Assembly: GCA_964520325.1 (NCBI GenBank)
Contig: CAZFOB010000003.1
Location: forward strand, 154,745-218,744
Length of the DNA: 64,000 nucleotides
Reading direction: 5' to 3'
Source: an uncultured Actinomycetes bacterium
GTDB taxonomy: Bacteria; Actinomycetota; JAICYB01
The translations under genes and the position numbers were made by a program. Numbering within the stretch: the stretch's first letter is position 1; every line of letters begins with the position of its first letter. Shown one piece after another: positions 3,910 through 60,625 of the stretch. The notes beneath the pieces are model-generated. The model did not search any database. It had not been told where the DNA came from and saw nothing but the letters and a program-made list of their open reading frames with translations.

Positions 3910-4866
3910 ATGGCCATCCAGACCCGCGACGTCCCGCCGCCCTCAGAAGAGATCCGCGGTGTGTTCGAGCTCACGGCTGCTCAGCTGCGCGTCCAGCGCC
4001 GCGTCACTCTCGTGTTCACGCTCATCCCATTCATCGGTGCCGTGCTCGCCATCACCCGGCTGTGGGGGACAGCCATCAGCGTCCTCGACTTCACGCTGTT
4101 CCTGTCCTTCTATCTGGCCGCCGGCGTCGGCATCACTGTCGGCAACCACCGCCTGTTCACGCACCGCAGCTTCAAGGCCGTGCGTCCGGTGCGGATCTTG
4201 CTCGCGCTGTTCGGGTCGATCGCCGTGCAGGGGTCGACGATCCAGTGGTGTGCGACGCACCGTCGTCACCACGCCTATGCCGACCAGTACGGCGATCCGC
4301 ACTCGCCGCACCTCGCGCAGGCGGCTGGGATAAAAGGCGTGCTCCTCGGGCTGTGGCACGCGCACAGTGGCTGGCTTTTCGAGGGAAAGGCTTCGGACGA
4401 GCGGGAGTGGACGCCGGATCTCGTCGCCGACAAGGACATCTCGTGGATCAGCCGCAACTTCCTCGGACTGACGATCATCTCGTTCACGCTTCCGGCGCTG
4501 ATCGCCTTCGCGGTCACGCAGTCGTTCACCGCCGCAGTCACGGCGTTCCTGTGGGGATCGCTTGTCCGCATCTTCCTCCTGCACCACGTGACGTGGAGCA
4601 TCAACTCGATCTGCCACTTCTACGGCAAAGAGGCGTACCGCGCGAAGGATGAGAGCAAGAACGTGTGGGCGCTCTCGCCGGTGAGCTTCGGTGAGTCGTG
4701 GCACAACAACCACCACGCGTTCCAGTGGTCGGCGAAGCTGGGCTTGCGCGCATGGCAGGTCGACATGGGCTGGTACGTGATCAGCACGCTCAAGGCGCTG
4801 CGCCTCGTCCGTGACGTGAAGGTTCCAACGAAGGACCAGATGGCCAAGCGTAAGCTTCCTGCGTGA
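3910..4866 (+). CDS. Membrane fatty-acid (acyl-CoA/acyl-lipid) desaturase, DesA3-like
   Basis: Three histidine boxes HRLFTHRSF, HRRHHAY, HNNHHAF and multiple TM segments. Start chosen at ATG 3910 after a strong RBS. The longer six-frame ORF from 3502 overlaps the upstream gene and encodes the repeat array. Confidence 0.8.
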   Translation: MAIQTRDVPPPSEEIRGVFELTAAQLRVQRRVTLVFTLIPFIGAVLAITRLWGTAISVLDFTLFLSFYLAAGVGITVGNHRLFTHRSFKAVRPVRILLALFGSIAVQGSTIQWCATHRRHHAYADQYGDPHSPHLAQAAGIKGVLLGLWHAHSGWLFEGKASDEREWTPDLVADKDISWISRNFLGLTIISFTLPALIAFAVTQSFTAAVTAFLWGSLVRIFLLHHVTWSINSICHFYGKEAYRAKDESKNVWALSPVSFGESWHNNHHAFQWSAKLGLRAWQVDMGWYVISTLKALRLVRDVKVPTKDQMAKRKLPA

Positions 4867-5531
4867 CCTCGCAGAAGCCTCAGCTCGAATCGATCGACGG
4901 AGGTCGCGCCAAGGCCGCTCCGCGCAAGCGGATGTCGGGACCGGAACGCCGCGAACAGCTCATCGGTGTCGCGAAGGAGCTCTTCGCCGAACAAGGCTAC
5001 GAAGCAACCTCGGTTGAAGAGATCGCGGAGAAGGCGAAGGTCAGCAAACCCGTCGTCTACGAGCACTTCGGCGGGAAGGAAGGCATCTACGCCGTCATCG
5101 TCGACCGCGAGATCCGTTCGCTCGCCGACCGGATCAAAGCCGCACTTTCTCCAGGATCTCCCCGCCGCACGATCGTGCGCGCCGTCGATGCGTTCTTGCG
5201 CTACATCGAGGAGGAGCAGGCCGGGTTCAAGATCCTCACCCGTGACGCGCCGGTCGGAGCGAGCCGCGGCTCGTTCCCGAGCGTGCTCGACGAGATCGCA
5301 CAGGCTGTCGAAGAGCTGCTCTCAGGCGAGCTCGATGATCGCGGGTTCAGCCCCGATATCGCCCCGGTGCTCTCGCGGTGTCTCGTCGGCATGATCGCCA
5401 TGCCCGGGCAATGGTGGCTCGAGACCGGCAAACCCCGCCGGCGTGACGTCGCCGATCAGATCGTGAACATCGCGTGGAATGGTCTCGGCGGACTGCGCCA
5501 CCGACGCACGCCGCGCGGCGACCGCATCTAG
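4863..5531 (+). CDS. TetR-family transcriptional regulator
   Basis: N-terminal HTH RREQLIGVAKELFAEQGYEATSVEEIAEKAKVSKPVVYEHFGGKEGIY. GTG start overlaps the desaturase stop (GTGA). Confidence 0.85.
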   Translation: MTSQKPQLESIDGGRAKAAPRKRMSGPERREQLIGVAKELFAEQGYEATSVEEIAEKAKVSKPVVYEHFGGKEGIYAVIVDREIRSLADRIKAALSPGSPRRTIVRAVDAFLRYIEEEQAGFKILTRDAPVGASRGSFPSVLDEIAQAVEELLSGELDDRGFSPDIAPVLSRCLVGMIAMPGQWWLETGKPRRRDVADQIVNIAWNGLGGLRHRRTPRGDRI

Positions 5532-5583: not shown

Positions 5584-6243
5584 ATGCGGGTTATCCGTCC
5601 CATGTCCGACGTGGTGCTTCCGGTCCTCGACGAGGCCGAAGCGCTCCCGTGGGTGCTCGGGCGCATCCCCGCCGGCTACCACGCGATCGTGGTCGACAAT
5701 GGTTCGACCGACGGCTCGCCGGATATCGCCGGGGAGCTCGGAGCGGAGGTGATCCACGAGCCGCGGCGCGGCTTCGGAGCTGCCTGCTACACCGGGCTCA
5801 TCGCGGCGAGCCACCCCGTGGTGTGCTTCATGGACGCCGACGGCTCTCTCGACCCGCTCGACCTGCCGTGCGTGGCCGACGACGTGATCGACGACTCGTT
5901 TGACCTCGTGCTCGGCGCCCGGATCGCGGATCCAGGTGCGTGGCCGCTGCACGCGAGAGTGGCCAATCGCTACCTCGCGAGGCAGATCGGCAAGCGAACA
6001 GGCATCCGATTGCGTGACATCGGTCCGATGCGGGCGACCCGTCGTCAGGAGTTGATCGACCTCGGTATCGCCGACCGGCGATTCGGCTGGCCGCTCGAGA
6101 TGGTCCTGCGCGCCGGCGCGGCCGGGTGGCGGATCGGGGAGGTTGCCGTCCCGTACCGGAAGCGGTCCGGACGTTCGAAGGTGACCGGAACCGCGCGCGG
6201 GACACTGCGAGCCGTCCGCGACATGGCACGCGTCCTGACCTGA
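5584..6243 (+). CDS. Family 2 glycosyltransferase (dolichyl-phosphate sugar synthase-like)
   Basis: ...VLPVLDEAEALPWVLGRIP...IVVDNGSTDGSPDIA...FMDADGSLDP... carries GT2 DxD/DAD signatures. Start approximate (5578-5602). Confidence 0.75.
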   Translation: MRVIRPMSDVVLPVLDEAEALPWVLGRIPAGYHAIVVDNGSTDGSPDIAGELGAEVIHEPRRGFGAACYTGLIAASHPVVCFMDADGSLDPLDLPCVADDVIDDSFDLVLGARIADPGAWPLHARVANRYLARQIGKRTGIRLRDIGPMRATRRQELIDLGIADRRFGWPLEMVLRAGAAGWRIGEVAVPYRKRSGRSKVTGTARGTLRAVRDMARVLT

Positions 6244-6884
6244 TGCGAGCGCCACGGATCATCGTGCTCGCGAAGGCACCCGTACCCGGCTTGGTCAAGA
6301 CGCGGCTGTGCCCGCCCTGCACAGAGCAGGAGGCGGCAGAGATCGCCGACGCCGCCTTGCGGGACACCTTGGACGCCGTCACGTCAGTGCCCGGATCATC
6401 TCCGACGCTCGTTCTCGACGGCGCCCCCGGCGATTGGGTCCCAAGTGGATGCCGTGTGGTCGCTCAGCGCGGCAGTAGCCACGCAGAGCGCATCGGCAAT
6501 GCGTTCCTGGACGTCGGCGGACCGAGCCTGTTGATCGGCATGGACACACCGCAAGTCACATCGAGGCTCCTGGCCGATTGCATCGACGCACTGATGAGTC
6601 CGCGCACCGACGCGGTGCTCGGAGCAGCCGACGATGGCGGGTGGTGGGCGTTAGGGCTGCGGCGCCCGATCCATGGTGCCTTCGACGGCGTGCCGATGAG
6701 CACGTCGGCGACGGGCGCGCATCAACGCCGCCGGCTGGACGAGCTCGGCTTGCGCACCACGAGTCTTGCGATGCTCCGCGACGTCGACACCGTGGAGGAC
6801 GCCATCGCCGTCGCAGACGCGGCGCCGCACACGCGTTTCGGCTCTGCCGTCAAGGCGCTGCTCTCTGTGAGGATCGACCCGTGA
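6243..6884 (+). CDS. DUF2064 / TIGR04282-like GT-A-fold protein
   Basis: MRAPRIIVLAKAPVPGLVKTRL... is the characteristic DUF2064 N-terminus. ATG overlaps the GT2 stop (TGATG). Confidence 0.6.
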   Translation: MRAPRIIVLAKAPVPGLVKTRLCPPCTEQEAAEIADAALRDTLDAVTSVPGSSPTLVLDGAPGDWVPSGCRVVAQRGSSHAERIGNAFLDVGGPSLLIGMDTPQVTSRLLADCIDALMSPRTDAVLGAADDGGWWALGLRRPIHGAFDGVPMSTSATGAHQRRRLDELGLRTTSLAMLRDVDTVEDAIAVADAAPHTRFGSAVKALLSVRIDP

Positions 6885-8035
6885 AGCTGCCCGACCCGCC
6901 GCCCGTCGGTCCATTCCGGCCCGGCGCGTTCTCCAATCCGCTCCACGACGCGCGGCTCGGTGCGTGGCTCGGGATCGCGCTCGGGATCAGCTTCACAACC
7001 TGTTTCGTCACCGGTGTGTTGTCCCATCTGATCCAGCAACCCCCGGGTTGGTTCGTGTGGCCATCGCGGCCGGCCGGGTTGTATCGCATCTCGCAGGGAT
7101 TGCACGTGGCCACGGGCATCGCGTCGATCCCGTTGCTCCTCGCGAAGCTCTGGGTGGTGTTCCCGCACTTCTGGACGTGGCCCCCCGTGCGCACGATCGC
7201 TCACGCGGTCGAACGCATCAGCCTCGTGCCTCTCATCGCCGGCGCGATCTTCCTGCTCTACTCCGGACTTGCGAACATCGGTCTGTGGTATCCGTGGCCG
7301 TTCTTCTTCCCGTCTGCGCACTACTGGGCTGCGTGGATCATGATCGGCGGGCTCGTCGTGCACATCGGAGCGAAGCTGCCGATCACGCGAGCGGCCACCA
7401 AGCGCGGAGCCGACTTGGCGCCTCGAGTGGCTGAGGGCGGACTCAGTAGGCGCCGATTCATCGGTACGGTCGCAGCCGGCGTAGGGGGCGCGACGCTTGC
7501 AACGCTCGGACAAACCGTTCGTCCACTCCGCAGGCTTGCGGTTCTCGCACCCCGCGACCCGGACGTCGGACCGCAAGGATTCCCGGTGAACAAGTCCGCA
7601 CGATCGGCAGCGGTTCTCGACTCGGCGCGCGACAAGGATTACCGCTTGCGCGTCGCCGGGGCAGTCCGTGAGCCGCTCGAGCTCACACTCGACGATCTTC
7701 GCGCGATGCCATCGCGCGAAGCGACACTGCCCATCTCCTGCGTCGAAGGCTGGAGCGCGGATGCGAGGTGGCGGGGTGTTCCGGTCCGTGATCTGCTCGC
7801 GCGAGCCGGTGCGAAGCGGGGAGCAACCGTTCGCGTGGAATCGCTTCAGGAAGCCGGACTGTACAAGGCCTCCGATCTCAACACGAGCCATGCCGGCGAT
7901 CGGGACACGCTTCTCGCGTATGAGGTCAACGGTGAGGAGCTGCACATCGACCACGGATATCCAGTGCGGCTCATCGGACCGAACCGTCCGGGGGTGATGC
8001 AGACCAAATGGGTGTCGAAGCTGATCGTCGGCTGA
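6881..8035 (+). CDS. Molybdopterin-dependent oxidoreductase (sulfite-oxidase/MsrP-like fold) with N-terminal multi-TM domain
   Basis: Several TM helices, then ...LTLDDLRAMPSREATLPISCVEGWSADARWRGVPVRDLL...LLAYEVNGEELHIDHGYPVRLIGPNRPGVMQTKWVSKLIV, the Mo-pterin oxidoreductase core. GTG start overlaps the upstream stop. Confidence 0.7.
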   Translation: MKLPDPPPVGPFRPGAFSNPLHDARLGAWLGIALGISFTTCFVTGVLSHLIQQPPGWFVWPSRPAGLYRISQGLHVATGIASIPLLLAKLWVVFPHFWTWPPVRTIAHAVERISLVPLIAGAIFLLYSGLANIGLWYPWPFFFPSAHYWAAWIMIGGLVVHIGAKLPITRAATKRGADLAPRVAEGGLSRRRFIGTVAAGVGGATLATLGQTVRPLRRLAVLAPRDPDVGPQGFPVNKSARSAAVLDSARDKDYRLRVAGAVREPLELTLDDLRAMPSREATLPISCVEGWSADARWRGVPVRDLLARAGAKRGATVRVESLQEAGLYKASDLNTSHAGDRDTLLAYEVNGEELHIDHGYPVRLIGPNRPGVMQTKWVSKLIVG

Positions 8036-8472
8036 ACGAGGCCATCGAAGCTGTGCCGGGCGGCCCTGTGTTCTGGGGCGGCGTGCTCGTGGGATGGGCC
8101 GTGATCGGGTTCGGGATCTTCGGTGCGATCACGATCGGGCGGCGCATCAACTATTCGTTCGCGATCTGGTTCCTCGGCGGTTTGCTCGTCCACGATTTCC
8201 TCGTGGCGCCCATCGTCTTCACCGTCGGGAAGGCGCTGCGACGCGTCGTTGCGGGACGGTACCGGGCGGCGATCACCGCGGCGCTCGTCGTCTCGGCCTT
8301 CTTCGTCGTGGTTTCGATCCCGTTCCTGGGCCGATTCGGGATGCGCGCCGATAACGCAACGGTGCTTCCACGCAACTACACCACCGGGCTCCTCGTCATG
8401 CTGGCCATCGTGTGGACCTTCACGGCGGCAACGATCGTGTGGACGAGGTGGGCGTGGCGACGCGAACGCTGA
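8008..8472 (+). CDS. Small integral membrane protein (4 predicted TM)
   Basis: Hydrophobic 154-aa ORF with good codon usage. Overlaps the neighbouring genes at both ends. No family recognised. Confidence 0.45.
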   Translation: MGVEADRRLNEAIEAVPGGPVFWGGVLVGWAVIGFGIFGAITIGRRINYSFAIWFLGGLLVHDFLVAPIVFTVGKALRRVVAGRYRAAITAALVVSAFFVVVSIPFLGRFGMRADNATVLPRNYTTGLLVMLAIVWTFTAATIVWTRWAWRRER

Positions 8473-9794
8473 GCACCGATCCCGAGCATCGAGTGCTTGG
8501 GCAGCGGCGCAACGTTGCCCGCACCGCCGTCGCGCTCGCCGCCGCCGCCCTCCTGATCGCCGTCACCGCGGTGTGGGGCGGCCGGCTCAACACCACCCGC
8601 GCGTTGCGCATTCATGCGGCGCCGCTCTTCGCGTACTGGAAGCCATCGTTGGCTTGGGCGACGGCCGGCGCGATCGTCCTCGCGGCGCTGGTCTGCCTGC
8701 GTGGACCGTCGGTCGCACAACGCGTGCGCTTCACACATCTGCTCCTCATCGCGACGATCGTCACCGCCGCGTGGGGACTGATGCTTGCACTCACCGACGG
8801 ATGGACGGGGGTGACCAGGGGGCCGAGCGGGCCCCACGACTACCTCGCGATCGCCGGCGCTGCCGAGAGTCCCGGAGAGTTCCTCCGAACCTTCGTCGAT
8901 CGCATCGGCTCCTACAACGTGCATGTCCGCGGACATCCGCCGGCCCTCGTCCCGATCCTGTGGTGGTTGGAGCGCATCGGCCTCGGCGGACCGGGGGCGG
9001 CCGCGGCGCTGTTCGTCGCCGGCGGCGTGAGCTCCGTTCCCGCAGTGCTGTTGAGTGTTCGGGCCGTAGCCGGGGAAGCCACCGCCCGGCGCGTCGCTCC
9101 GTTCCTGATCCTTTCGCCCGCCGCCGTGTGGATGGTGACGTCGGCCGACGCACTTTTCCTCGGCGTAAGTGCGTGGGGGGCGACCCTCGTCATCCTTGCG
9201 GCAACGACGGCTGCAACGACGGGCGCAACGACGAAGAACGCCCGCTCGGCGGCCTACGCGACCGCGGGCGGACTTCTGCTCGGGTTCGGACTCTTCCTGT
9301 CTTACGGCTCGGTGCTCGTCGCGCTGATCCCGCTGACCGTGATCGTCTCGAAGCGCCGCTGGAGCGTGCTGATCGCGGCCGGTGCCGGCGGAGCGGCCGT
9401 GATCGCGGGATCTTGGTTGCTGGGGTTCTGGTGGCCGGCCGGGCTCATCGCCACGCGCGCCGAGTACGCCGACGGGATCGCGGCCGTGCGTCCCTATGGG
9501 TATTTCGTGCTGGCCAATCTCGCCGCGTTCGCGATCGTCTGCGGACCTGCCACGGTCGCGGGGATCGCGCGCCTGCTTGATCGGAAGCTGTGGCTCCTGG
9601 TCGGCGCGGGCTTAAGTGTCGTCGTTCTCGCCAACCTGAGCGGGCTCTCGAAGGGCGAGATCGAACGCATCTGGCTTCCGTTCTGGCCGTGGATCGCCTG
9701 TGCCGCGGCCGCACTCGATCGTCCGCGCGTATGGCTCGCGCTGCAAGCCACGACGGCGATCGCGATCGAGACATTCTTCTTCACGCATTGGTGA
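8412..9794 (+). CDS. Large polytopic membrane protein, possible GT-C-type glycosyltransferase
   Basis: 460 aa with >10 TM segments. It sits between GT2/DUF2064 and an NDP-sugar epimerase, so an envelope glycosylation role is inferred from context only. Alternative GTG starts at 8448/8454. Confidence 0.5.
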   Translation: MDLHGGNDRVDEVGVATRTLSTDPEHRVLGQRRNVARTAVALAAAALLIAVTAVWGGRLNTTRALRIHAAPLFAYWKPSLAWATAGAIVLAALVCLRGPSVAQRVRFTHLLLIATIVTAAWGLMLALTDGWTGVTRGPSGPHDYLAIAGAAESPGEFLRTFVDRIGSYNVHVRGHPPALVPILWWLERIGLGGPGAAAALFVAGGVSSVPAVLLSVRAVAGEATARRVAPFLILSPAAVWMVTSADALFLGVSAWGATLVILAATTAATTGATTKNARSAAYATAGGLLLGFGLFLSYGSVLVALIPLTVIVSKRRWSVLIAAGAGGAAVIAGSWLLGFWWPAGLIATRAEYADGIAAVRPYGYFVLANLAAFAIVCGPATVAGIARLLDRKLWLLVGAGLSVVVLANLSGLSKGEIERIWLPFWPWIACAAAALDRPRVWLALQATTAIAIETFFFTHW

Positions 9795-10900: not shown

Positions 10901-12486
<1,586 letters not shown>

Positions 12487-12631
12487 GAGAGGAACCTCCA
12501 GAAGATGTGAACTCGTCCTACGTCCGCGGGTGCGGACGCGCTTGCAGGAACGCTAGCTTCGAGGCGGTGACCGCGAGGTTTTCATCGTCGCAGGTTAGTC
12601 GCTGGACAACGACAGATGGGGAGGAGGTCGG

Positions 12632-13214
12632 ATTGCGCGTCCCGGAGCCGGAAGTGCTCGAGTTCACAGCGGTCAAGCAGTGGGAGCGCTGGCTCGCGAG
12701 GAACCACACGACCATGCCGGACGGCGCGTGGCTCCGATTCTTCAAGAAAGCCTCGGGAAAGCAGACGTTCACGTATGCGGAAGCACTCGAAGTGGCGCTC
12801 TGCTACGGGTGGATCGACGGTCAGGGCAAGTCGGAAGGAACGGAGTCGATGCGGCAGCGATGGCTGCCGCGGCGCGCGAGGAGCTCGTGGTCGAGGATCA
12901 ACACGGCACACGCGCAACGGCTGATCGAGCAGGGACGGATGAGGCCGGCCGGCCTGGCCGAGGTCGAGCGGGCCAAGCAAGACGGCCGGTGGGCGGCGGC
13001 TTACGATCCCCCGTCCACGTCGACGGTTCCGGACGACTTCGCAGCGCTTCTCGCGAAGAACAAGAAGGCAGGCGCGTTCTTCGAAGCGCTCAACAAGCAG
13101 AACAGATACGCGATCCTTCATCGACTGCAGACCGCCAAGAAGCCCGAGACGCGGCAACGGCGCATGAAGACGTTCGTCGAGATGCTGGCGAAAGGCGAGA
13201 AGCTCCACCCCTAA
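12632..13214 (+). CDS. YdeI/OmpD-associated family (DUF1801-like) protein
   Basis: ...AWLRFFKKASGKQTFTYAEALEVALCYGWIDGQ...NRYAILHRLQTAKKPETRQRRMKTFVEMLAKGEK. Start uncertain (TTG 12632 after GGAGG), because the upstream part of the six-frame ORF overlaps amt. Confidence 0.5.
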
Positions 13215-13294
13215 GACAGATCCGGGCTTACCTGCTCCGGCTGGTCTGTTTGCCCCGAACAGCGACAGACTGAGTGTCGAGCGAGGGAGATCGG

Positions 13295-14836
13295 ATGTAT
13301 CCAGGCGAGTACGCACATCAGCACCCGGACAAGCCCGTCTTCATCATGGCCAACTCCGGTGAGGTCATCACCTACGGTGAGTACGAAGAGCGGTGCAATC
13401 GGCTCGCGCATCTGTTCCGCGACATGGGGCTCGCGCGCGGCGACCACGTTGCCTTCTTCATGGAGAACAACCCGAGGATGCTCGAGGCCGAAGGTGCGGC
13501 CGAGCGGTCGGGTCTGTACTACACGTGCATCAACTCCTACTTGGCCCCCGATGAGGTCGCCTACATCGTCAACGACTGCCAGGCGAAGGTCGTGATCAGC
13601 TCGGGGGCCAAGCGAAGCACCGCGACGGAACTCGTAGCGAACGCACCGAACGTGCAGCGGTTCCTGATGGTGGACGACACCGCACCGGGCTGGGAGAGCT
13701 ACGAGAAGGCCGTCGAGGGATACGGCAGCGACCCGATCGGCGACGAGCAGCTCGGCGCTGCGATGCTGTATTCGTCCGGAACGACGGGACAGCCGAAAGG
13801 CATCCTGCGACCACTGCCGGAGTCGCCGCCGGGCGAGAGCTTGCTCGTCATGATGTTCGTGAAGGGTCTCTTCGGTTTCCGGGAAGAACAGACCTATCTT
13901 TCACCAGCGCCGTTGTACCACTCGGCCCCCCAGGCGAGCGTCTCCGGCACCGTCCGGCTCGGTGGGACGGCGGTGATCATGGAGCGCTTCGATCCCGAGG
14001 AGTGGCTCAGGCTTGTCGAGCTGCACAAGATCACGCACTGCCAGATGGTCCCGACGATGTTCTCCCGTCTGCTCAAGCTTCCCGAAGCAACGCGTCAGCG
14101 CTACGACCTTTCCTCGCTCGAGTGCATCGTCCACGCGGCGGCGCCGTGTCCTGTTCCGGTGAAGGAAGCGATGATCTCGTGGCTCGGCCCGATCATCCTC
14201 GAGTACTACGCAGCAACCGAAGCTCACGGGGCCACACTCGTCGGCTCCGACGATTGGTTGACGCATAAGGGCACGGTCGGCCGTCCTGTCCTCGGCGAGC
14301 TGGTCATCGCCGACGACGACATGAAGCCGTGCCCGGTGGGGTCGTCCGGCACGGTGTGGTTCCGCGGCGCGACGAACTTCGAGTACTTCAACGCACCGGA
14401 GAAGACTGCGGAAACGCGCGTCGAGGACGGCACGATGAGCACCGTCGGTGACGTCGGCTACGTCGACGATGAGGGATTCCTCTATCTCACCGACCGCAAG
14501 ACCTACATGATCATCTCGGGAGGCGTGAACATCTATCCGCAGGAGACCGAGAACCTGCTCATCACACACCCCAAGGTGATGGACGCCGCTGTGTTCGGCG
14601 TACCGAACGACGATCTCGGCGAAGAGGTGAAGGCCGTCGTCCAGGTCGTCGTTGGCGTCGAGCCGGGGGCCGAGCTCGAACGGGAGCTCATCGCGTTCTG
14701 CCGCGAGCACCTCGCGCACTTCAAGGCTCCACGGACCGTCGACTTCGAAGCCGAGCTGCCGCGGCTGCCGACGGGCAAGCTCTACAAGCGGATCCTGCGC
14801 GACAAGTACTGGCAGGATCGCGACACGCGGATCTGA
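13295..14836 (+). CDS. Acyl-CoA synthetase (AMP-dependent synthetase/ligase, FadD-like)
   Basis: AMP-binding signature YSSGTTGQPKG and C-terminal ...GKLYKRILRD. RBS GAGGGAGA upstream of ATG 13295. Confidence 0.8.
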   Translation: MYPGEYAHQHPDKPVFIMANSGEVITYGEYEERCNRLAHLFRDMGLARGDHVAFFMENNPRMLEAEGAAERSGLYYTCINSYLAPDEVAYIVNDCQAKVVISSGAKRSTATELVANAPNVQRFLMVDDTAPGWESYEKAVEGYGSDPIGDEQLGAAMLYSSGTTGQPKGILRPLPESPPGESLLVMMFVKGLFGFREEQTYLSPAPLYHSAPQASVSGTVRLGGTAVIMERFDPEEWLRLVELHKITHCQMVPTMFSRLLKLPEATRQRYDLSSLECIVHAAAPCPVPVKEAMISWLGPIILEYYAATEAHGATLVGSDDWLTHKGTVGRPVLGELVIADDDMKPCPVGSSGTVWFRGATNFEYFNAPEKTAETRVEDGTMSTVGDVGYVDDEGFLYLTDRKTYMIISGGVNIYPQETENLLITHPKVMDAAVFGVPNDDLGEEVKAVVQVVVGVEPGAELERELIAFCREHLAHFKAPRTVDFEAELPRLPTGKLYKRILRDKYWQDRDTRI

Positions 14837-15705
14837 TGGCAGGCCTCAGCAAGAACCTGAGAGAGCCGGAGGAGGTGATCTCCTTCCCGAGTGCGCGTTA
14901 TGAGATCGTCGACCTCGGAGACCACACCGTCGCGTACGGCCGCCTCGAGCCAGGCTGGAGATGGTCCACCCACGTGCGTCCGGAGGTCGGCGGGCAGTGG
15001 TGCCAAGCCCACCATGTCGGCGTCATCCTCAAAGGCCGCATGGGGATCGTCTTCGTGGACGGATCGACGATGGAGGTCGGGCCTCTTGAGTGCTACGACA
15101 TCCCTCCCGGGCACGACGGCTACGTGATCGGTCACGAACCGGTCGAGTCGATCGAGTGGTCGGGGGCCCGGGCATGGGGAGGTTTCCGGTCGGGGACGTC
15201 CGGACGGATGCTCGTCACGCTGCTCATCACCGACCTCGTCGACTCGACGCCTACGGCTGCGAAGCTCGGCGATGCCGCATGGCGCGACCTTTCGTCAAGG
15301 CACTTCTCCGCGAGCCGCGACCGGCTCGACCGCTTCGGTGGACGGGAGGTGAAGACGACGGGCGACGGGATGATCGCGACCTTCGACGCGACGGCCAACG
15401 CGATCCGCTGCGCCGACGAGATCCTCCGTGTAGCGCGTGGTTTGGGAGTCGCCGCCCGGGCCGGTGTGCACGTCGGCGAGGTCGACTTCGTCGGGAACGA
15501 CGTCCGCGGCGTCGCCGTTCACGAGGCCGAGCGCATCGCCCAGATCGCCGGCGCCGACGAGGTGTTCGTGTCCGAGACGACACGCGTGCTCGCCATGACG
15601 GCCGGGCTCTCTTTCGACGACCGGGGGATGCATGCTCTCAAAGGCCTCGAAGGAGAGCGGAGGATCTTCGCCTACACGCGCGGATCCGCACCCGCGCCGA
15701 CGTGA
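14836..15705 (+). CDS. Cupin-domain / class III adenylate (guanylate) cyclase fusion
   Basis: N-terminal approx 115 aa is cupin-like. C-terminal block ...LITDLVDSTP...KTTGDGMIATF...GVHVGEV... is the class III nucleotidyl cyclase catalytic core. ATG overlaps the upstream stop (TGATG). Confidence 0.7.
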   Translation: MAGLSKNLREPEEVISFPSARYEIVDLGDHTVAYGRLEPGWRWSTHVRPEVGGQWCQAHHVGVILKGRMGIVFVDGSTMEVGPLECYDIPPGHDGYVIGHEPVESIEWSGARAWGGFRSGTSGRMLVTLLITDLVDSTPTAAKLGDAAWRDLSSRHFSASRDRLDRFGGREVKTTGDGMIATFDATANAIRCADEILRVARGLGVAARAGVHVGEVDFVGNDVRGVAVHEAERIAQIAGADEVFVSETTRVLAMTAGLSFDDRGMHALKGLEGERRIFAYTRGSAPAPT

Positions 15706-17396
15706 GCCGGACCAAGCCACTTATCGTCGCCGTCGACGACGACCCCTCGGCGCTCTCGCACATAAGCGTCGAGCTCCAGCGCCGGTACGACCGCGACTAC
15801 GAGATCGTCTACGAGACCTCGGCGCTCGCCGCGCTCGAGAAGGTCGAGCGGGCGCCGGATCGAGTCGCCATCGTGCTCGCCGATCAGTGGATGCCCGAGC
15901 TGACGGGAACGGAGCTTCTCGGGCGTGTCCGGGACCTCAGCCCCCGGACGAAGCGAGCGCTGCTCATCCGCTGGGGAGACTGGGGGGACGAACGCACGAC
16001 TGCGGCCGTCCGGGATGCCATCGGGACGGGCTCCATCGATTACTACCTGCTCAAACCGTGGAAGTCGCCGGACGAGCTCTTCCACCGTTCGATCACCGAG
16101 TACCTCTTCGAGTGGTCGCGCGCCGCCGGCACGACGTTCGAGGTGACGCTCGTATCCGATCGCTCGTCCGTGCGGGGCCACGAGCTCCGCGACCTCTTGA
16201 CGCGGAACGGCGTTCCGCATATCTACTACCCGTCGTCCTCCGCCGAAGGACAGGACGTGCTCGCTCGAGTCGGACGCACAGAAACGACCGTCCCCGTCGT
16301 CGAGCTGCTCGGGGGACGCGTGCTAGACGATCCGACGAACGGCGAGCTTGCCAACGCGCACGGCGTCGCGACCGACCTCATCGACGACACCGAGTTCGAC
16401 GTGGCGATAGTCGGCGCCGGACCGGGAGGGATGGCGGCGGCGGTCTACGCGTCGTCCGAGGGCTTGAGATCGATCGTCATAGAGAGCCACGCGATCGGAG
16501 GTCAGGCCGGGTCGAGCTCGATGATCCGTAACTATCTGGGCTTTGCCCGGGGTATCGGTGGCGCCGACCTGATGCAGCGTGCATACCAGCAGGCGTGGGT
16601 GTTCGGGACGCGGTTCCTCATGACCCGCGCCGTCACCGGCTTGCGTTGCGGGGACGACGCCCACGAGCTTCTTGTCGGCTCGGATGTGATCCGAGCATCG
16701 AGCGTCGTCCTCGCGATGGGGGTCGACTACCGGAAGCTCGATATCCCTGCGGTCGAAAGGCTCCGCGGGAGCGGCGTCTACTACGGTGCGTCCCCCGCCG
16801 AGGGGCCCCTCGTGAAGGACGGCCGCGCTTTCGTCGTGGGCGCGGGGAACTCGGCCGGGCAAGCCGCGGTCCATCTCGCGAAGTACGCGGCCGAAGTCTT
16901 GATCGTCGTCCGCGGCGCGAGACTCCAGGCGAGCATGTCTGCTTACTTGATCGATGAGATCGAAGCGTCGGCGAACATCCGCGTGCTCGCGGAGACCCAG
17001 GTTGTCGATGCGGCAGGGGAGATGAGCCTCGAAGCGATCACGCTCGAGAACGCGTCGGGAGATAGGACGGAGACAGAAGCGGACGGACTGTTCGTGATGA
17101 TCGGCGCGAAGCCGCACACGGAGTGGTTGCCGCCGGAGGTGGCCAGGGATCAGCACGGATTCGTCGTGACCGGCGGCGACCTCGTGCACGACGAGCTACT
17201 CGCAGACTGGGTGCTCGCGCGTCCGCCCTACGGGTTCGAGACGACGTTCCCCGGCGTCTTCGCTGTCGGAGATGTGCGATCCCGCTCGGTCAAGCGCGTC
17301 GCGTCCGCCGTGGGAGAGGGTTCGGCGGCGATCCAGCTCGTGCATCGATTCTTGGAGCAGCGCGAGCAGTGGCCGGCGACGCGCCGGACGCTGTAG
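15702..17396 (+). CDS. Response-regulator receiver domain fused to a thioredoxin-reductase-like FAD/NAD(P) oxidoreductase lacking the CxxC redox motif
   Basis: Receiver: LIVAVDDDP...IVLADQWMPELTG...YYLLKPW. Flavoprotein: VAIVGAGPGGMAAAVY...GQ..., a second Rossmann GAGNSAGQ, and C-terminal GVFAVGDV. Where TrxR has CATCDG this protein has YYGASPAEG. GTG overlaps the cyclase stop (GTGA). Confidence 0.7.
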   Translation: MSRTKPLIVAVDDDPSALSHISVELQRRYDRDYEIVYETSALAALEKVERAPDRVAIVLADQWMPELTGTELLGRVRDLSPRTKRALLIRWGDWGDERTTAAVRDAIGTGSIDYYLLKPWKSPDELFHRSITEYLFEWSRAAGTTFEVTLVSDRSSVRGHELRDLLTRNGVPHIYYPSSSAEGQDVLARVGRTETTVPVVELLGGRVLDDPTNGELANAHGVATDLIDDTEFDVAIVGAGPGGMAAAVYASSEGLRSIVIESHAIGGQAGSSSMIRNYLGFARGIGGADLMQRAYQQAWVFGTRFLMTRAVTGLRCGDDAHELLVGSDVIRASSVVLAMGVDYRKLDIPAVERLRGSGVYYGASPAEGPLVKDGRAFVVGAGNSAGQAAVHLAKYAAEVLIVVRGARLQASMSAYLIDEIEASANIRVLAETQVVDAAGEMSLEAITLENASGDRTETEADGLFVMIGAKPHTEWLPPEVARDQHGFVVTGGDLVHDELLADWVLARPPYGFETTFPGVFAVGDVRSRSVKRVASAVGEGSAAIQLVHRFLEQREQWPATRRTL

Positions 17397-17424
17397 TAAT
17401 CACCTTCAACCATCGAGGAGAGGC

Positions 17425-18204
17425 ATGAGCGACTACACGCTGGTGCAGAGGCAAGATCACGTGCTCGAAGTTACGATCAACCGGCCCGAGGTGATGAACG
17501 CCTTGCATCCGGCGGCCAACCGCGAGCTCGCCGAGATCTGGGACGAGTTCCAGAACGACGCGGACCTCTGGGTCGGGATCATCACGGGGGCCGGGGACCG
17601 CGCATTCTCGGCGGGCAACGATCTCAAGCATCAAGCCTCCGGCGGTGACATGAGCGGGCAGCCCGCTTCGGGCTTCGCCGGCTTGACGTCCCGCTTCGAT
17701 CTCGACAAGCCGGTCATCGCCGCGGTGAACGGAGTCGCGATGGGCGGCGGGTTCGAGATCGCTCTCGCCTGCGACATCATCGTCGCGTCGGATCAAGCCA
17801 CGTTCGCGTTACCCGAGCCACGCGTCGGCTTGGCGGCACTCGCGGGCGGGATGCAACGCCTGCCGCGCATGATCCCTCTCAAACACGCGATGGGCATGAT
17901 CCTCACCGGACGCCGGGTGCCGGCGGCCGAAGGCAAGGAGCTCGGGTTCGTTACCGACGTCGTCTCGCATGCAGCGCTGATGGATCGCGCGCGTTGGTGG
18001 GCTGCGCAGATCCTCGAGTGCTCGCCGGCCTCGGTTCGCGCGAGCAAGCAGACGGTGATGCGCAGTCTCGACATCACCGGGCTCGAGGAGTCGATGAAGC
18101 TTGGTCAGTATCCCGCGATCGGTGATCTCTTGCGCAGCGAGGACTTCATCGAAGGACCGCTTGCGTTCGCACAGAAGCGGGCTCCGCAGTGGAAGGGCAC
18201 GTAG
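17425..18204 (+). CDS. Enoyl-CoA hydratase/isomerase (crotonase family)
   Basis: ...LEVTINRPEVMNALHP...AGNDLKH...AAVNGVAMGGGFEIALACD. RBS GAGGAGAGG precedes ATG 17425. The longer ORF from 17272 is an artefact. Confidence 0.85.
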   Translation: MSDYTLVQRQDHVLEVTINRPEVMNALHPAANRELAEIWDEFQNDADLWVGIITGAGDRAFSAGNDLKHQASGGDMSGQPASGFAGLTSRFDLDKPVIAAVNGVAMGGGFEIALACDIIVASDQATFALPEPRVGLAALAGGMQRLPRMIPLKHAMGMILTGRRVPAAEGKELGFVTDVVSHAALMDRARWWAAQILECSPASVRASKQTVMRSLDITGLEESMKLGQYPAIGDLLRSEDFIEGPLAFAQKRAPQWKGT

Positions 18205-18243
18205 CCGCCGACGGCTTGCGTTGACTCCGAAACTTCGTGAGAG

Positions 18244-18414
18244 GTGGAGCAGCTCCACGATCGCTGTTGCGGGATCGATGTGCATCAAGCCGAACTCACG
18301 GCGTGCGTTCGCATCGCCGAGGGCAAGCGGTGGAGCGAGCATGTGCAGGCTTTCGGCACGACCACTGGTTGTGATCGCGGCGCAGGCCGGTCAGCGGTCG
18401 GAAGCCGTCAGTAG
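18244..18414 (+). pseudogene. Remnant of an IS110-family transposase N-terminus (56 codons, truncated)
   Basis: Translation VEQLHDRCCGIDVHQAELTACVRIAEGKRWSEHVQAFGTTTGCDR... resembles the IS110 DEDD-transposase N-terminal block (GIDV-K--L-VCV... rfgtt). It ends at TAG with no downstream continuation in any frame. Confidence 0.4.
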
Positions 18415-18569
18415 CCGTTGTCGGCCTTTCGGCCGGTCAGGGCGCGGTTTCGCACACTCACCAGGATGAACGTGAACGGCCGATAGGGGGTAGTTTCGGG
18501 GGCATCTTTCCCCGGGTCACGCCACCGGGGGCACGCACGCGGCCGATCGGAAAAGGGCTTGCGGGCGAT

Positions 18570-18760
18570 CTTCACGCGTTGCTAAGGTCAGGCGACGAGA
18601 GCGACGGTGCGAGGAAGCCGGTGAGAGTCCGGCGCGGTCGCGCCACTGTGACCGGGGAGCCAGTTCCCGAAAGCCACTGCCCGAAGGGCGGGAAGGTGCG
18701 GTGATCCGGAAGCCAGGAGACTTGGGCCGTCGCTGGAGCCCCGGACGGGACGCGTAATCT
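18570..18760 (+). ncRNA. Cobalamin (B12) riboswitch
   Basis: Contains ...GGTGCGAGGAAGCCGGTGAGAGTCCGGCGCGGTCGCGCCACTGTGACCGGGGAGC... and the B12 box AAGCCAGGAGACTTGGGCC, immediately upstream of the RBS GAGGAGG and the cbtB ATG at 18774. Confidence 0.75.
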
Positions 18761-18773
18761 CGAGGAGGTCAGC

Positions 18774-18971
18774 ATGTCGAACGCCGCACTCGCTCCCCGT
18801 ATCGCCACGTACGCCCCGTCGATCTCGCTGCGCGAGCTCTGGCCGTGGGTCGTGTTCGTGGCTTCCCTTCTCGTAGTGATGCTGTACTTCGTCGGCTCGT
18901 TCCAGGGGTTGGCTTGGCTGCACGAATTCGTACACGACGGCCGTCATCTGCTCGGCTTCCCCTGCCACTGA
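18774..18971 (+). CDS. cbtB: Cobalt transporter small subunit CbtB
   Basis: 65 aa with a single TM and C-terminal HEFVHDGRHLLGFPCH, the conserved CbtB histidine-rich tail. Confidence 0.7.
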   Translation: MSNAALAPRIATYAPSISLRELWPWVVFVASLLVVMLYFVGSFQGLAWLHEFVHDGRHLLGFPCH

Positions 18972-18983
18972 GGCAGTTTCGCC

Positions 18984-19736
18984 ATGACCAGGAACCTCCT
19001 CGTCTGCGGATTGATCGCTGGCATCTGTGCGGGACTCTTCGCGTTCGGCGTTGGTCGAGTGATCGGCGAACCGGCCGTCGATCGCGCCATCGCGTTCGAA
19101 GAACGCTCGGCGCCGCCGTCCGACGAACCCGCCGAAGCGCCCATCGTGACACGCACCGTGCAGAGCACCATCGGATTACTCACGGCAGCCATCGCCTTCG
19201 GGCTCGCGATAGGCGGCCTCTTCGCCCTGGCTTTTGGTTTCGTCTACGGCCGGGCCGGCCAAGCCGACCCCGCACGGACGGCGGCCTGGCTCGCAGCAGC
19301 TGCCTTCGTCGTCGTGTTTCTTGTGCCGTTCCTGAAGTACCCGGCGAACCCGCCCGCCGTCGGCAACCCGAACACGATCGACCATCGAACGGGACTGTAT
19401 TGGGCGATGCTGGCCGTATCGCTCGGCGGTGCCGTCGGAGCGCTTCGCTTCAGGCACTATCTGGGGTCGCGAATGTCTGGTCGAAGTGCATCGTTGTCGG
19501 CGATCGGGTCTTACATCGTCGTGGTGCTCTTCGCCGGGCTCACTTTGCCTGGTGTTCACGAGGTTCCCGGCGACTTTCCCGCGGTGACGCTGTGGGCGTT
19601 CCGGCAAGCGACGGTAGGGATACAGCTCACGATGTGGGCGACGATCGGCATCGTCTTCGGATCGCTGGCACAGCGCATCATGAAGAGATCCGATCCGCGA
19701 CTTACGCCCGCGACCGCTGGCGTCCTGGAGGACTGA
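18984..19736 (+). CDS. cbtA: Cobalt transporter subunit CbtA
   Basis: 250 aa with about 5 TM helices in the typical CbtA arrangement, directly after cbtB and under the B12 riboswitch. Confidence 0.7.
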   Translation: MTRNLLVCGLIAGICAGLFAFGVGRVIGEPAVDRAIAFEERSAPPSDEPAEAPIVTRTVQSTIGLLTAAIAFGLAIGGLFALAFGFVYGRAGQADPARTAAWLAAAAFVVVFLVPFLKYPANPPAVGNPNTIDHRTGLYWAMLAVSLGGAVGALRFRHYLGSRMSGRSASLSAIGSYIVVVLFAGLTLPGVHEVPGDFPAVTLWAFRQATVGIQLTMWATIGIVFGSLAQRIMKRSDPRLTPATAGVLED

Positions 19737-39264: not shown

Positions 39265-39440
39265 ACCTTCCCCGGGATCACGCGTCCCGAACGAAGCACT
39301 CGTGGCGGTCGAGTGTCCTGACTCCCGGATCGTCGCTCCTCCCGCCTTCCGGCCCTCTTGGCCGTGGCTTGAAGGGAATCGCTCCCCGGTTACAGTGGCG
39401 CAACCGTCCCGGATTCACACCGGGTTCCTCACGCCGCCAC
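39265..39440 (-). ncRNA. Second cobalamin (B12) riboswitch (minus strand)
   Basis: Reverse complement reads ...GGTGTGAATCCGGGACGGTTGCGCCACTGTAACCGGGGAGCGATTCCCTTCAAGCCACGGCC...GGGAGTCAGGACACTCGACC..., nearly collinear with riboswitch 1 (GCCACTG core, B12-box-like AGTCAGGACAC). It sits upstream of the ATG at 39259. Confidence 0.65.
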
Positions 39441-39487
39441 GCTGACGTCGCTACCGTACCAGACCGCCGGATAACGACCGTCTCGAA

Positions 39488-50047: not shown

Positions 50048-50584
50048 ATGAAGTTCCTCCTGAGGAAGGCAAAGCTAGACGAGGTTCCGGCTCTACAGGA
50101 GTTAATCGCCAGGTCGGCTCGGGAGCTTTGCCGCGACGACTACTCAGAGGCGCAAATTGAGGCTGCAATAGGTACGGCATGGGGCGTCGACACTGAGTTG
50201 ATTCGCGATGAGACGTACTTCGCCGTTGAGGCGGATGGCGAAATTGTGGCCTGCGGTGGGTGGAGCCGACGCAAGACGCTCTTTGGCGCCGATGCTGCAG
50301 CCGATCGGGAGTCCGAGACCCTGGATCCCACCACGGACTCCGCTCGCATCCGCGCCTTCTTTGTTCGTCCCGACTGGGCACGGCAAGGGATCGGCAACTT
50401 GCTCCTCGAAGAATGCGAGTCGGAAGCGCGTGCCCATGGCTTTCGGTCGGCGGAGCTTGTCGCGACATTACCGGGACATCGGCTCTACCAGATGTTTGGA
50501 TACGTGGGCGACGAGCGAGTCGAGTACCCGCTGACTGGGGGAATCTCGATCGAGTTCATCCCGATGAAGAAGGAAGCCATTTGA
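50048..50584 (+). CDS. GNAT-family N-acetyltransferase
   Basis: ...FFVRPDWARQGIGNLLLEECESEARAHGF... is the acetyl-CoA binding motif A (Q/RxxGxG/A). Lower-GC codon usage than the surroundings. Confidence 0.8.
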   Translation: MKFLLRKAKLDEVPALQELIARSARELCRDDYSEAQIEAAIGTAWGVDTELIRDETYFAVEADGEIVACGGWSRRKTLFGADAAADRESETLDPTTDSARIRAFFVRPDWARQGIGNLLLEECESEARAHGFRSAELVATLPGHRLYQMFGYVGDERVEYPLTGGISIEFIPMKKEAI

Positions 50585-50634
50585 ACAGGCGCAGATGCGC
50601 CTGCGGAGGCTCCGGTCGGCCTTACACTGGCCTC

Positions 50635-50874
50635 ATGACGACCGAGATCAAGTGGCAAGACCACATCGTCTCGACGCCCGACACTTTGCACGGAAAGCCG
50701 CGGTTTAAGGGCACGCGCATTCCGGTCACGGTCGTCTTGGATAACCTTGCCGGCGGCGTCAGCCGCGAAGAGATCTATGACAACTGGCCGACGTTGCCGC
50801 CAGAGGCTATCGAAGTCGCACTCGCCTACGCCGCCGAGCTGGCCCGCGAGCGCATCGTCCCCATTCCGCAATAG
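50635..50874 (+). CDS. DUF433-family protein (antitoxin-like)
   Basis: MTTEIKWQDHIVSTPDTLHGKPRFKGTRIPVTVVLDNLAGGVSREEIYDNWPTLPPEAIEVALAYAAEL matches the DUF433 consensus (GKP-I-GTRI-V--VL--L-AG). Confidence 0.7.
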   Translation: MTTEIKWQDHIVSTPDTLHGKPRFKGTRIPVTVVLDNLAGGVSREEIYDNWPTLPPEAIEVALAYAAELARERIVPIPQ

Positions 50875-50877
50875 TTC

Positions 50878-51240
50878 GTGGCGTCGCTCAAGCTCGACGA
50901 GAACATGCCGGATGCGGCTGCCGAGATCCTCCGCAGCGCAGGCCACGACGTCGCTCTGGCCAGGGACGAGGCTCTGGCCGGTGAAGACGACGACCGCCTG
51001 GCGGCCGTCGCATCGGCTGAGGGCCGCGTCCTCGTCACACTGGACGTCGATTTCGCCGACATCCGTCGTCATCCGCCTGCGGGCACGCCCGGGCTTGTCG
51101 TGATCCGCCTGCATCGACAGACAGTCGGCTTGATGCGCCGGGCGGCGATCGCGCTCGGAGACTTCCTGCTGAGCGAGCCGATCACCGGCAAGCTCTGGAT
51201 CGTCGATGAATCGCGCTTGCGCGTTTGGCCCGACTGGTAG
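50878..51240 (+). CDS. DUF5615-family PIN-like protein (toxin-like partner of DUF433)
   Basis: MASLKLDENMPDAAAEILRSAGHDVALARDEALAGEDDDRLAAVASAEGRVLVTLDVDFADI... matches the DUF5615/Mut7-C-like layout. GTG start 3 nt after the DUF433 stop. Confidence 0.65.
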   Translation: MASLKLDENMPDAAAEILRSAGHDVALARDEALAGEDDDRLAAVASAEGRVLVTLDVDFADIRRHPPAGTPGLVVIRLHRQTVGLMRRAAIALGDFLLSEPITGKLWIVDESRLRVWPDW

Positions 51241-51402
51241 CGGCGCCGCATGACTCGCGGTTGCACCCGACCGAGACTGCTTTGGCGTCGACCTCATTCC
51301 CGTTCCCTCAACTCCCGGGTGCCGGATCGCGCGAAACTGTTGGAGCGGAGCGGGCGTCGACAATGTCTCAGCGGGTGAACCGCAGAAGTCGTTAGGCGAA
51401 CT

Positions 51403-51843
51403 GTGAATGTGGTTGTCACTCCCCTTGAAGATGTCGAACGGATAGTCGCGCTTGCTCAAGAGGCTGAACACGACGGACATCAGATGGTGTCTCGTTTGAT
51501 CTCGGATCACAGGGACGGCTCGAACCGCTTCAACGCGGCAGGGGAGCGGCTGTACATCGCGGAAGCTGATGGCAGAGTGCTTGGCGTGTGCGGGCTCAAC
51601 CTCGACCCATACGTTGCCGACGCCAGCGTAGGGCGCGTCCGCCGTCTCTATGTCTCGGTAGCCCAACGCCGGCTGGGTGTTGGCTCGGTTCTGGTGGATC
51701 AAGTCGTGAGTGACGCTCGTGGCACGTTCGCGAGGTTACGACTGCGCACGTACGACCCGATCGCGGCGGCGTTCTATGTGTCCCGCGGATTCGGGCAGGT
51801 CGGGGATGATGAGTTTTGTACGCATCAGATCGCCCTGGAATGA
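51403..51843 (+). CDS. GNAT-family N-acetyltransferase
   Basis: ...LYVSVAQRRLGVGSVLVDQVVSDARG... motif A. Confidence 0.75.
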   Translation: MNVVVTPLEDVERIVALAQEAEHDGHQMVSRLISDHRDGSNRFNAAGERLYIAEADGRVLGVCGLNLDPYVADASVGRVRRLYVSVAQRRLGVGSVLVDQVVSDARGTFARLRLRTYDPIAAAFYVSRGFGQVGDDEFCTHQIALE

Positions 51844-60582: not shown

Positions 60583-60625
60583 CGAACTAGTATCGACACG
60601 TCTGGGAGCCAACGGAGGACGCAGC

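Follow-up and report, generated by a model that had tools for sequence, protein, structure and literature searches.

The locus described here lies in a stretch of 64,000 nucleotides from an uncultured Actinomycetes bacterium (assembly GCA_964520325.1, contig CAZFOB010000003.1, positions 154,745 to 218,744 of the forward strand), which was analysed as a whole and is called the window below. Four co-directional genes, named G1 to G4, occupy positions 13295-18204 of its + strand. Since the G+C content of the window is 62-70%, third-position GC separates real genes from many spurious open reading frames (ORFs) and was used in this way; all four genes are backed by it, and gene calls made by other pipelines on two short public (Logan) contigs with identical DNA gave the same lengths of 513, 289, 564, and 259 aa. 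G1 and G2 meet at TGATG, where the last base of the G1 TGA stop is also the first base of the G2 ATG, the G2 stop overlaps the GTG start of G3 by 4 bases (GTGA), and a gap of 28 nt separates G3 from G4. These junctions had been read in the same way in a preliminary description made from the sequence, and its domain calls for the four genes also proved correct in Pfam and NCBIfam scans, with the cupin label of G2 taken as probable. The present work is mainly concerned with the middle two genes: G2, which encodes a class III adenylate cyclase with a probable cupin domain, and G3, which encodes a flavoprotein related to thioredoxin reductase (TrxR). The coordinates of the genes and of their domains are collected in Table 1.

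Table 1. Genes and protein domains of the G2-G3 pair and of its two neighbours, in positions of the window.
Feature	Position	Strand	Basis or remark
G2, 289 aa, class III adenylate cyclase with probable cupin domain	14836-15705	+	core part 1
G2, cupin-like beta-barrel sensor domain, ~aa 13-109	14872-15162	+	AlphaFold2 (AF2) model, Pfam matches of homologues, conservation
G2, cyclase homology domain, aa 119-285	15190-15690	+	alignment to Rv1900c and Ma1120, family conservation
G3, receiver + Cys-less glutaredoxin (Grx)-like + CxxC-less TrxR-like flavoprotein, 564 aa, GTG start	15702-17396	+	core part 2
G3, atypical receiver, aa 8-125	15723-16076	+	alignment to canonical receivers; acceptor D61 = 15882-15884
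G3, glutaredoxin/mycoredoxin-like domain without active-site Cys, aa 146-226	16137-16379	+	AF2 topology, profile search
G3, TrxR-like FAD/NAD(P)H module, aa 229-553	16386-17360	+	both dinucleotide glycine motifs kept; YYGASPAEG (16779-16805) replaces CxxC
G1, acyl-CoA ligase (FadD4-like), 513 aa	13295-14836	+	AMP-binding, AMP-binding_C; lineage-specific neighbour, outside conserved core
G4, crotonase-family enoyl-CoA hydratase, 259 aa	17425-18204	+	ECH_1; neighbour, not kept with the G2-G3 pair

G3 consists of three domains, of which the Grx-like middle one had been overlooked in the preliminary description. In the AF2 model this segment showed the topology beta-alpha-beta-alpha-beta-beta-alpha, and its profile matched Rv3198.1 of M. 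tuberculosis (2lqo) with an E value of 3e-6, together with other glutaredoxins. The C-G-Y-C of glutaredoxins is aligned to a consensus S-P-R-T of the G3 domain, which is Cys-free in G3 and in most homologues, and the cis-Pro P198, aligned with the TVP motif of glutaredoxins, is invariant. The module behind it was matched by Pyr_redox_2 (E 2e-31), and the FAD, second dinucleotide, and C-terminal GD motifs of the family (GAGPGG, GAGNSAG, and FAVGDV) vary little or not at all. In alignments to the solved TrxRs 4gcm, 7aaw, and 5uth, GASPAEG of G3 occupies the place of CA-VCDG, and the whole G3 protein contains a single Cys. No CxxC was found anywhere in any of 80 homologues, and none at the canonical site in 150 cluster representatives of the wider family. 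The 80 homologues are the closest ones in species-representative genomes; apart from a few from Gemmatimonadota and a single Alphaproteobacteria record, almost all come from uncultured Actinomycetota. The alignments, the single Cys, and the homologues thus confirmed the loss of CxxC claimed earlier. Over 35 G3-like sequences (55-67% identical to G3) the mean column identity was 71%, across all three domains and the full length, and G3 is strongly constrained in sequence.

Judged by its sequence, G3 appears to be an AhpF-like fusion of Grx and TrxR in which both disulfide centres have been lost. As in AhpF, a thioredoxin-fold domain stands ahead of the reductase module; in contrast to TrxB and AhpF, G3 has no CxxC in either the reductase or the thioredoxin-fold domain, its HRRxxxR motif is degenerate, and a signalling domain has been added at the N-terminus. 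G3 scored under the NCBIfam cut-offs for both TrxB and AhpF (202 bits against 343 for TIGR01292, TrxB), and the YpdA/Bdr model (TIGR04018) gave 65 bits, its cut-off being 340. The replaced CxxC segment had previously been called reminiscent of YumC. Membership in the YumC-type ferredoxin-NADP reductases (FNRs) was rejected, and G3 stands nearer to genuine TrxR and AhpF: YpdA/Bdr and the YumC-type FNRs are much more distant from it (54-65 bits versus 140 for TrxRs), they are without Grx-like or signalling domain, and the motifs GGQAGSSSxIRNYLGF and GVFYGASxxE are peculiar to the G3 family. Because all redox cysteines are lost and the FAD and NAD(P)H sites are kept, G3 cannot act as a dithiol-disulfide reductase, and with dithiol-disulfide exchange excluded, electrons must go straight from the flavin to the substrate. 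YpdA/Bdr and TrxR-like FNRs offer a precedent for such direct transfer.

The N-terminal domain of G3 was matched by Response_reg with 30.9 bits (cut-off 30.2). It keeps D12, D13, D14, the acceptor D61, and K118, all aligned with invariant residues of canonical receivers, so the phospho-acceptor Asp, the Asp pocket, and the Lys are retained in the window copy, and the strings LADQWMPELTG, KPW, and YYGASPAEG quoted in the preliminary description are all present in G3. The conserved Thr/Ser at the end of beta-4, the switch residue, is Ile89 in G3 and Ile, Val, or Leu in 80/80 clade members, and a clade-specific insertion of 6 residues, WGDWGD, lies beside this position. Of 27 cyclase-coupled orthologues, 17 no longer have the acceptor Asp (Ala in its place, a gap in one locus), compared with 12 of 43 members without a cyclase nearby, these counts being uncorrected for phylogeny. 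The receiver of this clade is therefore degenerate. In view of the missing Thr/Ser, the insertion, and the loss of the acceptor Asp in most cyclase-coupled orthologues, the phosphorylation gating that had been proposed for the flavoprotein is doubtful here, even though both Asp pocket and Lys are present in the window copy.

In G2, the cyclase core was supported by Guanylate_cyc (27.5 bits; cut-off 21.9) and by a model of the LipJ cyclase domain (155 bits). The catalytic residues are present, namely the metal-binding D133 and D177, the substrate-binding K173 and D222, and the phosphate-binding R233 and K269; across the family, all three Asp (the metal-binding pair and the one for the substrate) show little or no variation, and the substrate Lys varies in about 7 of 30 homologues. 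The position of the transition-state Asn is taken by His229, which is invariant in the family, and the aligned residue of Rv1900c (LipJ) is also His. G2 differs from LipJ in that the substrate Lys is kept, where Rv1900c has Asn, and in that the N-terminus is a cupin instead of an alpha/beta-hydrolase. A 2004 survey of actinobacterial cyclases contains no mention of cupin or thioredoxin.

The N-terminal domain of G2 was less easily assigned. The window copy gave no Pfam match at E 0.1, and fold searches gave matches to the cyclase domain only. Cupin_2 was matched by 12 of 17 homologous N-termini (53-75% identical; best E 6e-6, mostly under the gathering score), the remaining Pfam matches of these homologues all came from the cupin clan, and weak profile matches to the cupins RemF and 3d82 were obtained. 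In the AF2 model the first ~115 residues are all-beta, with a predicted local distance difference test score (pLDDT) of about 90 over aa 13-109. H46, C56, H60, H93, D94, and E107 of this domain are invariant or nearly so, and the conserved His, Cys, and acidic residues in the barrel suggest a metal or ligand site. The fusion of a cupin to a cyclase described earlier thus stands as far as the cyclase core is concerned, and the cupin label is probable for the family, the window copy itself being without a Pfam match.

Among the 80 loci, a full-length G2 orthologue (52-64% identical) lies directly upstream of the G3 homologue and on the same strand in 24, with a 4-bp overlap in 20 of these, the counts coming from related genomes and not from independent events. 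The 24 paired loci belong to Acidimicrobiia, Gaiellales, Solirubrobacterales, and Thermoleophilaceae. Two more of the 80 carry a more distant or damaged copy of G2, and a different cyclase-domain gene adjoins the G3 homologue in 13 further loci: in six of them it encodes a membrane class III cyclase, and in the other seven a large regulator of LuxR type whose N-terminus is cyclase-like. The genetic link between flavoprotein and cyclase noted in the preliminary description is therefore real, and stronger than is visible from the window. In contrast, the fatty-acid enzymes that had been placed in the same operon are not kept with the pair. No G1 homologue was found in the 80 loci, and only the two nearest metagenomic relatives, L083 and L085 (64% identity), have retained the run ligase-cyclase-flavoprotein, neither of them with a crotonase after the pair; a third relative instead has genes for a CoA-transferase and a patatin. 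G4 matched only distant crotonases 2-5 kb off in one group of Solirubrobacterales genomes, never adjacent to the pair. A conserved four-gene operon was accordingly rejected. Because the pair recurs and the ligase and hydratase do not, the conserved functional unit is the two-gene pair G2-G3, and the lipid genes are lineage-specific company.

Several other genes were seen around the G3 homologues. In L083 and L085, the ligase-cyclase-flavoprotein run is directly preceded by a gene for a GNAT acetyltransferase (4763-5530 and 4759-5526, respectively), which the window does not have; this arrangement recalls the cAMP-dependent acetylation of mycobacterial FadD enzymes. Locus L042 (Acidimicrobiales) contains tandem G3 paralogues (6001-7650 and 7846-9456), with a cupin-cyclase before the first and a membrane cyclase after the second, the latter with a 4-bp overlap. 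The window itself encodes, at 55766-59188 (-), a 1140-aa LuxR-type regulator whose aa 32-191 resemble the G2/LipJ cyclase domain (BLASTP E 4e-6; 41 bits with the LipJ model), and the same kind of protein adjoins G3 homologues in seven other loci. A gene for a Cys/His-rich UBP-type zinc-finger protein of 87-117 aa recurs in operons of both receiver-type and cNMP-binding-type flavoproteins, the latter described below (L087 8107-8460, L090 6637-6987, L093 3249-3512, L048 5544-5873); its product could be a partner or substrate of the flavoprotein, and no zf-UBP homologue was found in the 64-kb window. Finally, L012 (7711-8073), L025, and L048 share a gene, placed between those for the G3 homologue and for a membrane class III cyclase, whose 120-aa product reads by eye like a truncated haemoglobin; this neighbour hints at a context of O2/NO or of haem reduction.

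The wider family was sampled by an exhaustive profile-free search, from which the best 150 cluster representatives at 50% identity were taken, and their N-terminal regulatory heads were classed by local BLAST. Among these 150 clusters, 113 carry a receiver, 23 carry a cyclic nucleoside monophosphate (cNMP)-binding domain, cNMP_binding, in its exact place, and one carries a receiver together with a C-terminal cNMP_binding domain; the other 13, mostly short and fragment-like, matched neither head. The cNMP-binding forms align with G3 over the whole part that begins with the Grx-like domain and runs to the C-terminus (43-50% identity over the matched stretches in those forms that were scanned with Pfam), and CxxC is absent from them as well. 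The family comprises more than 100 clusters at 50% identity and spreads over Actinomycetota, Cyanobacteriota, Deinococcota, Pseudomonadota, and Gemmatimonadota. Because receiver and cNMP-binding input domains interchange before it, the Grx/TrxR-like module is most readily seen as a regulated output.

A receiver-type gene was also found in annotated replicons of cultured bacteria, 40-45% identical to G3 and named only 'FAD-dependent oxidoreductase'. In Nostoc sp. C052, Gloeothece verrucosa, Streptomyces fungicidicus, Tsukamurella tyrosinosolvens, Deinococcus aetherius, and Caballeronia sp. NK8, which represent four phyla, it is directly followed by a gene for an 'ATP-binding protein', with GTGA or ATGA overlaps at the junction in four of the six. 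All six products are histidine kinases, orthologous to one another, that carry HATPase_c and, at the N-terminus, cNMP_binding; in a seventh record a transposase lies between the flavoprotein gene and the kinase gene. The receivers of this kinase-coupled clade are canonical, with the Thr present in LLTAYAD. No histidine kinase was found in the 64-kb window, in agreement with what had been noted before.

The combination of a receiver (REC) and TrxR is already listed, as a 'Mycobacterium-like combination', in a census of response regulators (Galperin et al. 2018, PMC5847659). G3 has the same architecture as the REC-thioredoxin-reductase class of that census and is a member of it; the census is silent on the loss of Cys, the Grx-like domain, the cNMP-binding kinase, the cNMP-binding sister form, and the coupling to a cyclase. 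In searchable full text, no functional paper was found on REC-TrxR fusions, cNMP-binding TrxRs, cupin cyclases, or cNMP-binding kinases, the census being the only mention. The statement in the preliminary description that the system could not be matched to a described one therefore has to be divided: the architecture is matched, by the census and by 113 of the best 150 clusters, and as to function the statement stands, since no description was found. The fusion is thus common, and no study characterising it as a simple TrxR was met in the searchable literature. Taken together, G2-G3 is a cyclase-coupled variant of a census-listed, functionally unstudied response-regulator architecture.

From the observed domain content, Cys losses, synteny, and domain swaps, we infer that the pair is a cNMP-controlled flavoenzyme paired directly with its cyclase, that is, an output module of cAMP signalling, and on balance we hold this reading to be probable. 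It rests on the finding that every head variant ties the module to cyclic nucleotides. In the proposed mechanism, G2 would be a soluble sensor adenylate cyclase, whose cupin barrel, with its invariant His and Cys, probably binds a ligand or a metal and controls a class III domain of the LipJ/Rv1900c type, which presumably makes cAMP. G3 would be the regulated flavoenzyme that passes electrons from the flavin directly to a substrate, behind a regulatory head that is exchanged across the family: a fused cNMP-binding domain, a canonical receiver with a cNMP-binding kinase, or a degenerate receiver with a coupled cyclase gene. In the lineage of the window, the kinase partner would have been replaced by the translationally coupled cyclase, with the receiver decaying, and the cyclase and the flavoprotein would be made in a fixed ratio and act together. 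Such a replacement and decay suggest that the pseudo-receiver-like domain most likely touches the cyclase directly; an unlinked cNMP-dependent kinase is possible for the window copy, as its acceptor Asp is kept. The layout of the sister form, input domain fused to enzyme, is exactly that of cAMP-regulated enzymes with a fused cNMP-binding domain, such as the cAMP-dependent protein acetyltransferase of mycobacteria. It differs from them in that the output is a flavoprotein, and the window has a receiver-like domain and an adjacent cyclase in place of the cNMP-binding domain.

Several observations weigh against the reading of the pair as a cNMP-controlled flavoenzyme. G3 has no cNMP-binding domain and the 64-kb window contains no cNMP-dependent kinase, so that the window offers no evident route from cAMP to G3. 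About 37 of the 80 loci are without a cyclase-domain gene nearby. Of 42 evaluable metagenomic cupin-cyclase loci, only the three closest to G2 precede a G3 homologue, so only one sub-clade of the cupin-cyclases is dedicated to the flavoprotein; an obligate partnership of the cyclase was rejected, most metagenomic cupin-cyclases having other neighbours. The synteny points to no substrate or partner protein. The NADPH 2'-phosphate motif HRRxxxR is aligned to VRGARLQ in G3, with only the first Arg kept (R404, invariant), so that either NADH or NADPH may be preferred by G3. Last, an invariant segment of the flavin domain, aa 264-286 (16491-16559, GGQAGSSSMIRNYLGF... / GGQAGSSSMIRNYLGFARGIGG), has a pLDDT <50 in an otherwise confident AF2 model of this domain, and may be a mobile or ligand-dependent loop.

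The main rival keeps the pair together and reverses the control: the flavin/NAD(P)H state of G3 would sense redox or oxygen, the receiver-like domain would switch G2, and cAMP would report the redox state. The tight translational coupling of G2 and G3 suits this explanation, and the loss of phosphorylation residues in most cyclase-coupled receivers is expected of a pure protein-contact domain. It is also in line with the missing conservation of any redox-partner gene nearby, and with the by-eye reading of the haemoglobin-like gene that stands between G3 homologue and membrane cyclase in three loci and hints at an O2/NO context. Reversed control nevertheless seems unlikely to us, since the sister modules stand behind a cNMP-binding domain or a kinase-fed receiver, both of them inputs that mark the flavoprotein as output, and since G2 already has a sensor domain of its own in the cupin.

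The model of the preliminary description places all four genes in one operon, with a cAMP sensor and a flavoprotein gated by phosphorylation that regulate fatty-acid activation and beta-oxidation or take part in them. It finds support in the window itself, where all four genes are co-directional and closely spaced, a cobalamin riboswitch bounds the unit downstream, and the receiver keeps its Asp pocket and Lys. The ligase also precedes the pair in the two nearest relatives, with the GNAT acetyltransferase before it, and genes for acyl-CoA dehydrogenase, crotonase, CoA-transferase, and patatin recur near G3 homologues of other clades. Against it, none of the 80 genome loci contains the ligase or has the hydratase next to the pair, such lipid-gene neighbours are confined to a few related genomes in phyla rich in such genes, the receiver is without the conserved Thr/Ser, and no kinase lies within 64 kb; we consider this model improbable. 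Still more improbable, to the point that we give it very little credence, is that G3 is a housekeeping TrxR or FNR with a decorative N-terminus and that the cyclase is an incidental neighbour. Source annotations do call such proteins 'thioredoxin reductase (NADPH)' or 'FAD-dependent oxidoreductase', and TIGR01292 does give 202 bits, but that score is below the cut-off, G3 has no CxxC and one Cys in all, FNRs are far more distant, the three-domain length is strongly conserved at the column identity given above, and the 4-bp overlap with a cyclase gene recurs in several orders.

Extended from the cNMP-controlled pair to the whole family, the proposal becomes more tentative, possible rather than probable in our estimation: the G3 family would be the output of an unrecognised, widespread branch of cyclic-nucleotide signalling, in which cAMP or cGMP controls a Cys-less flavoenzyme with new non-disulfide redox chemistry by three routes. 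These would be a fused cNMP-binding domain, a cNMP-gated histidine kinase with a receiver, and, in the window, a stoichiometric complex of sensor cyclase and pseudo-receiver. To our knowledge, if the CRP-type transcription factors are set aside, only few enzymes have been identified as direct targets of cAMP in bacteria, and the most valuable result is the comparative evidence for the whole family as a cyclic-nucleotide output, a large family whose conserved core is a flavoprotein stripped of its ancestral thiol chemistry. If the proposal is true, a redox enzyme joins the outputs of cAMP signalling, a cAMP-gated two-component system becomes testable in cultured Streptomyces, Nostoc, or Deinococcus, and the family offers a natural series of receivers that decay to protein-contact modules after a cyclase has taken the place of the kinase.

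The two outer genes of the run were identified by their domains. G1 was matched by AMP-binding with E 5e-71, FadD4 being its best NCBIfam model (629 bits, under the cut-off of 850), and G4 by ECH_1 with E 3e-60; the DpgD and EchA19 models stayed under their cut-offs for G4, and no equivalog cut-off was reached. On the 5' side the four-gene unit is bounded by a YdeI/OmdA gene ending at 13214, with a divergent amt-glnB pair further upstream, and on the 3' side by a cobalamin riboswitch heading a cbtB-cbtA-cob cluster. A promoter and terminator scan of 12400-19000 gave no signal above shuffled controls. Two cobalamin riboswitches are present in the window, at 18612-18722 (+) and 39291-39473 (-), scoring 72 and 80 bits, respectively; cbtB-cbtA follows the first, together with a long run of cobalamin-biosynthesis genes that reaches to ~37740 (CobN, CobQ, CbiC, methylases), with MetH beyond. 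Elsewhere in the window, four well-supported ORFs of 340-484 aa gave no Pfam match at E <=1e-5 (8412-9794 (+), 50485-51702 (-), 52649-53674 (-), and 53743-55197 (-)), and an 836-aa protein encoded at 60005-62515 (+) combines 340 N-terminal residues that could be assigned to no domain with an FMO-like flavin monooxygenase region from ~aa 340.

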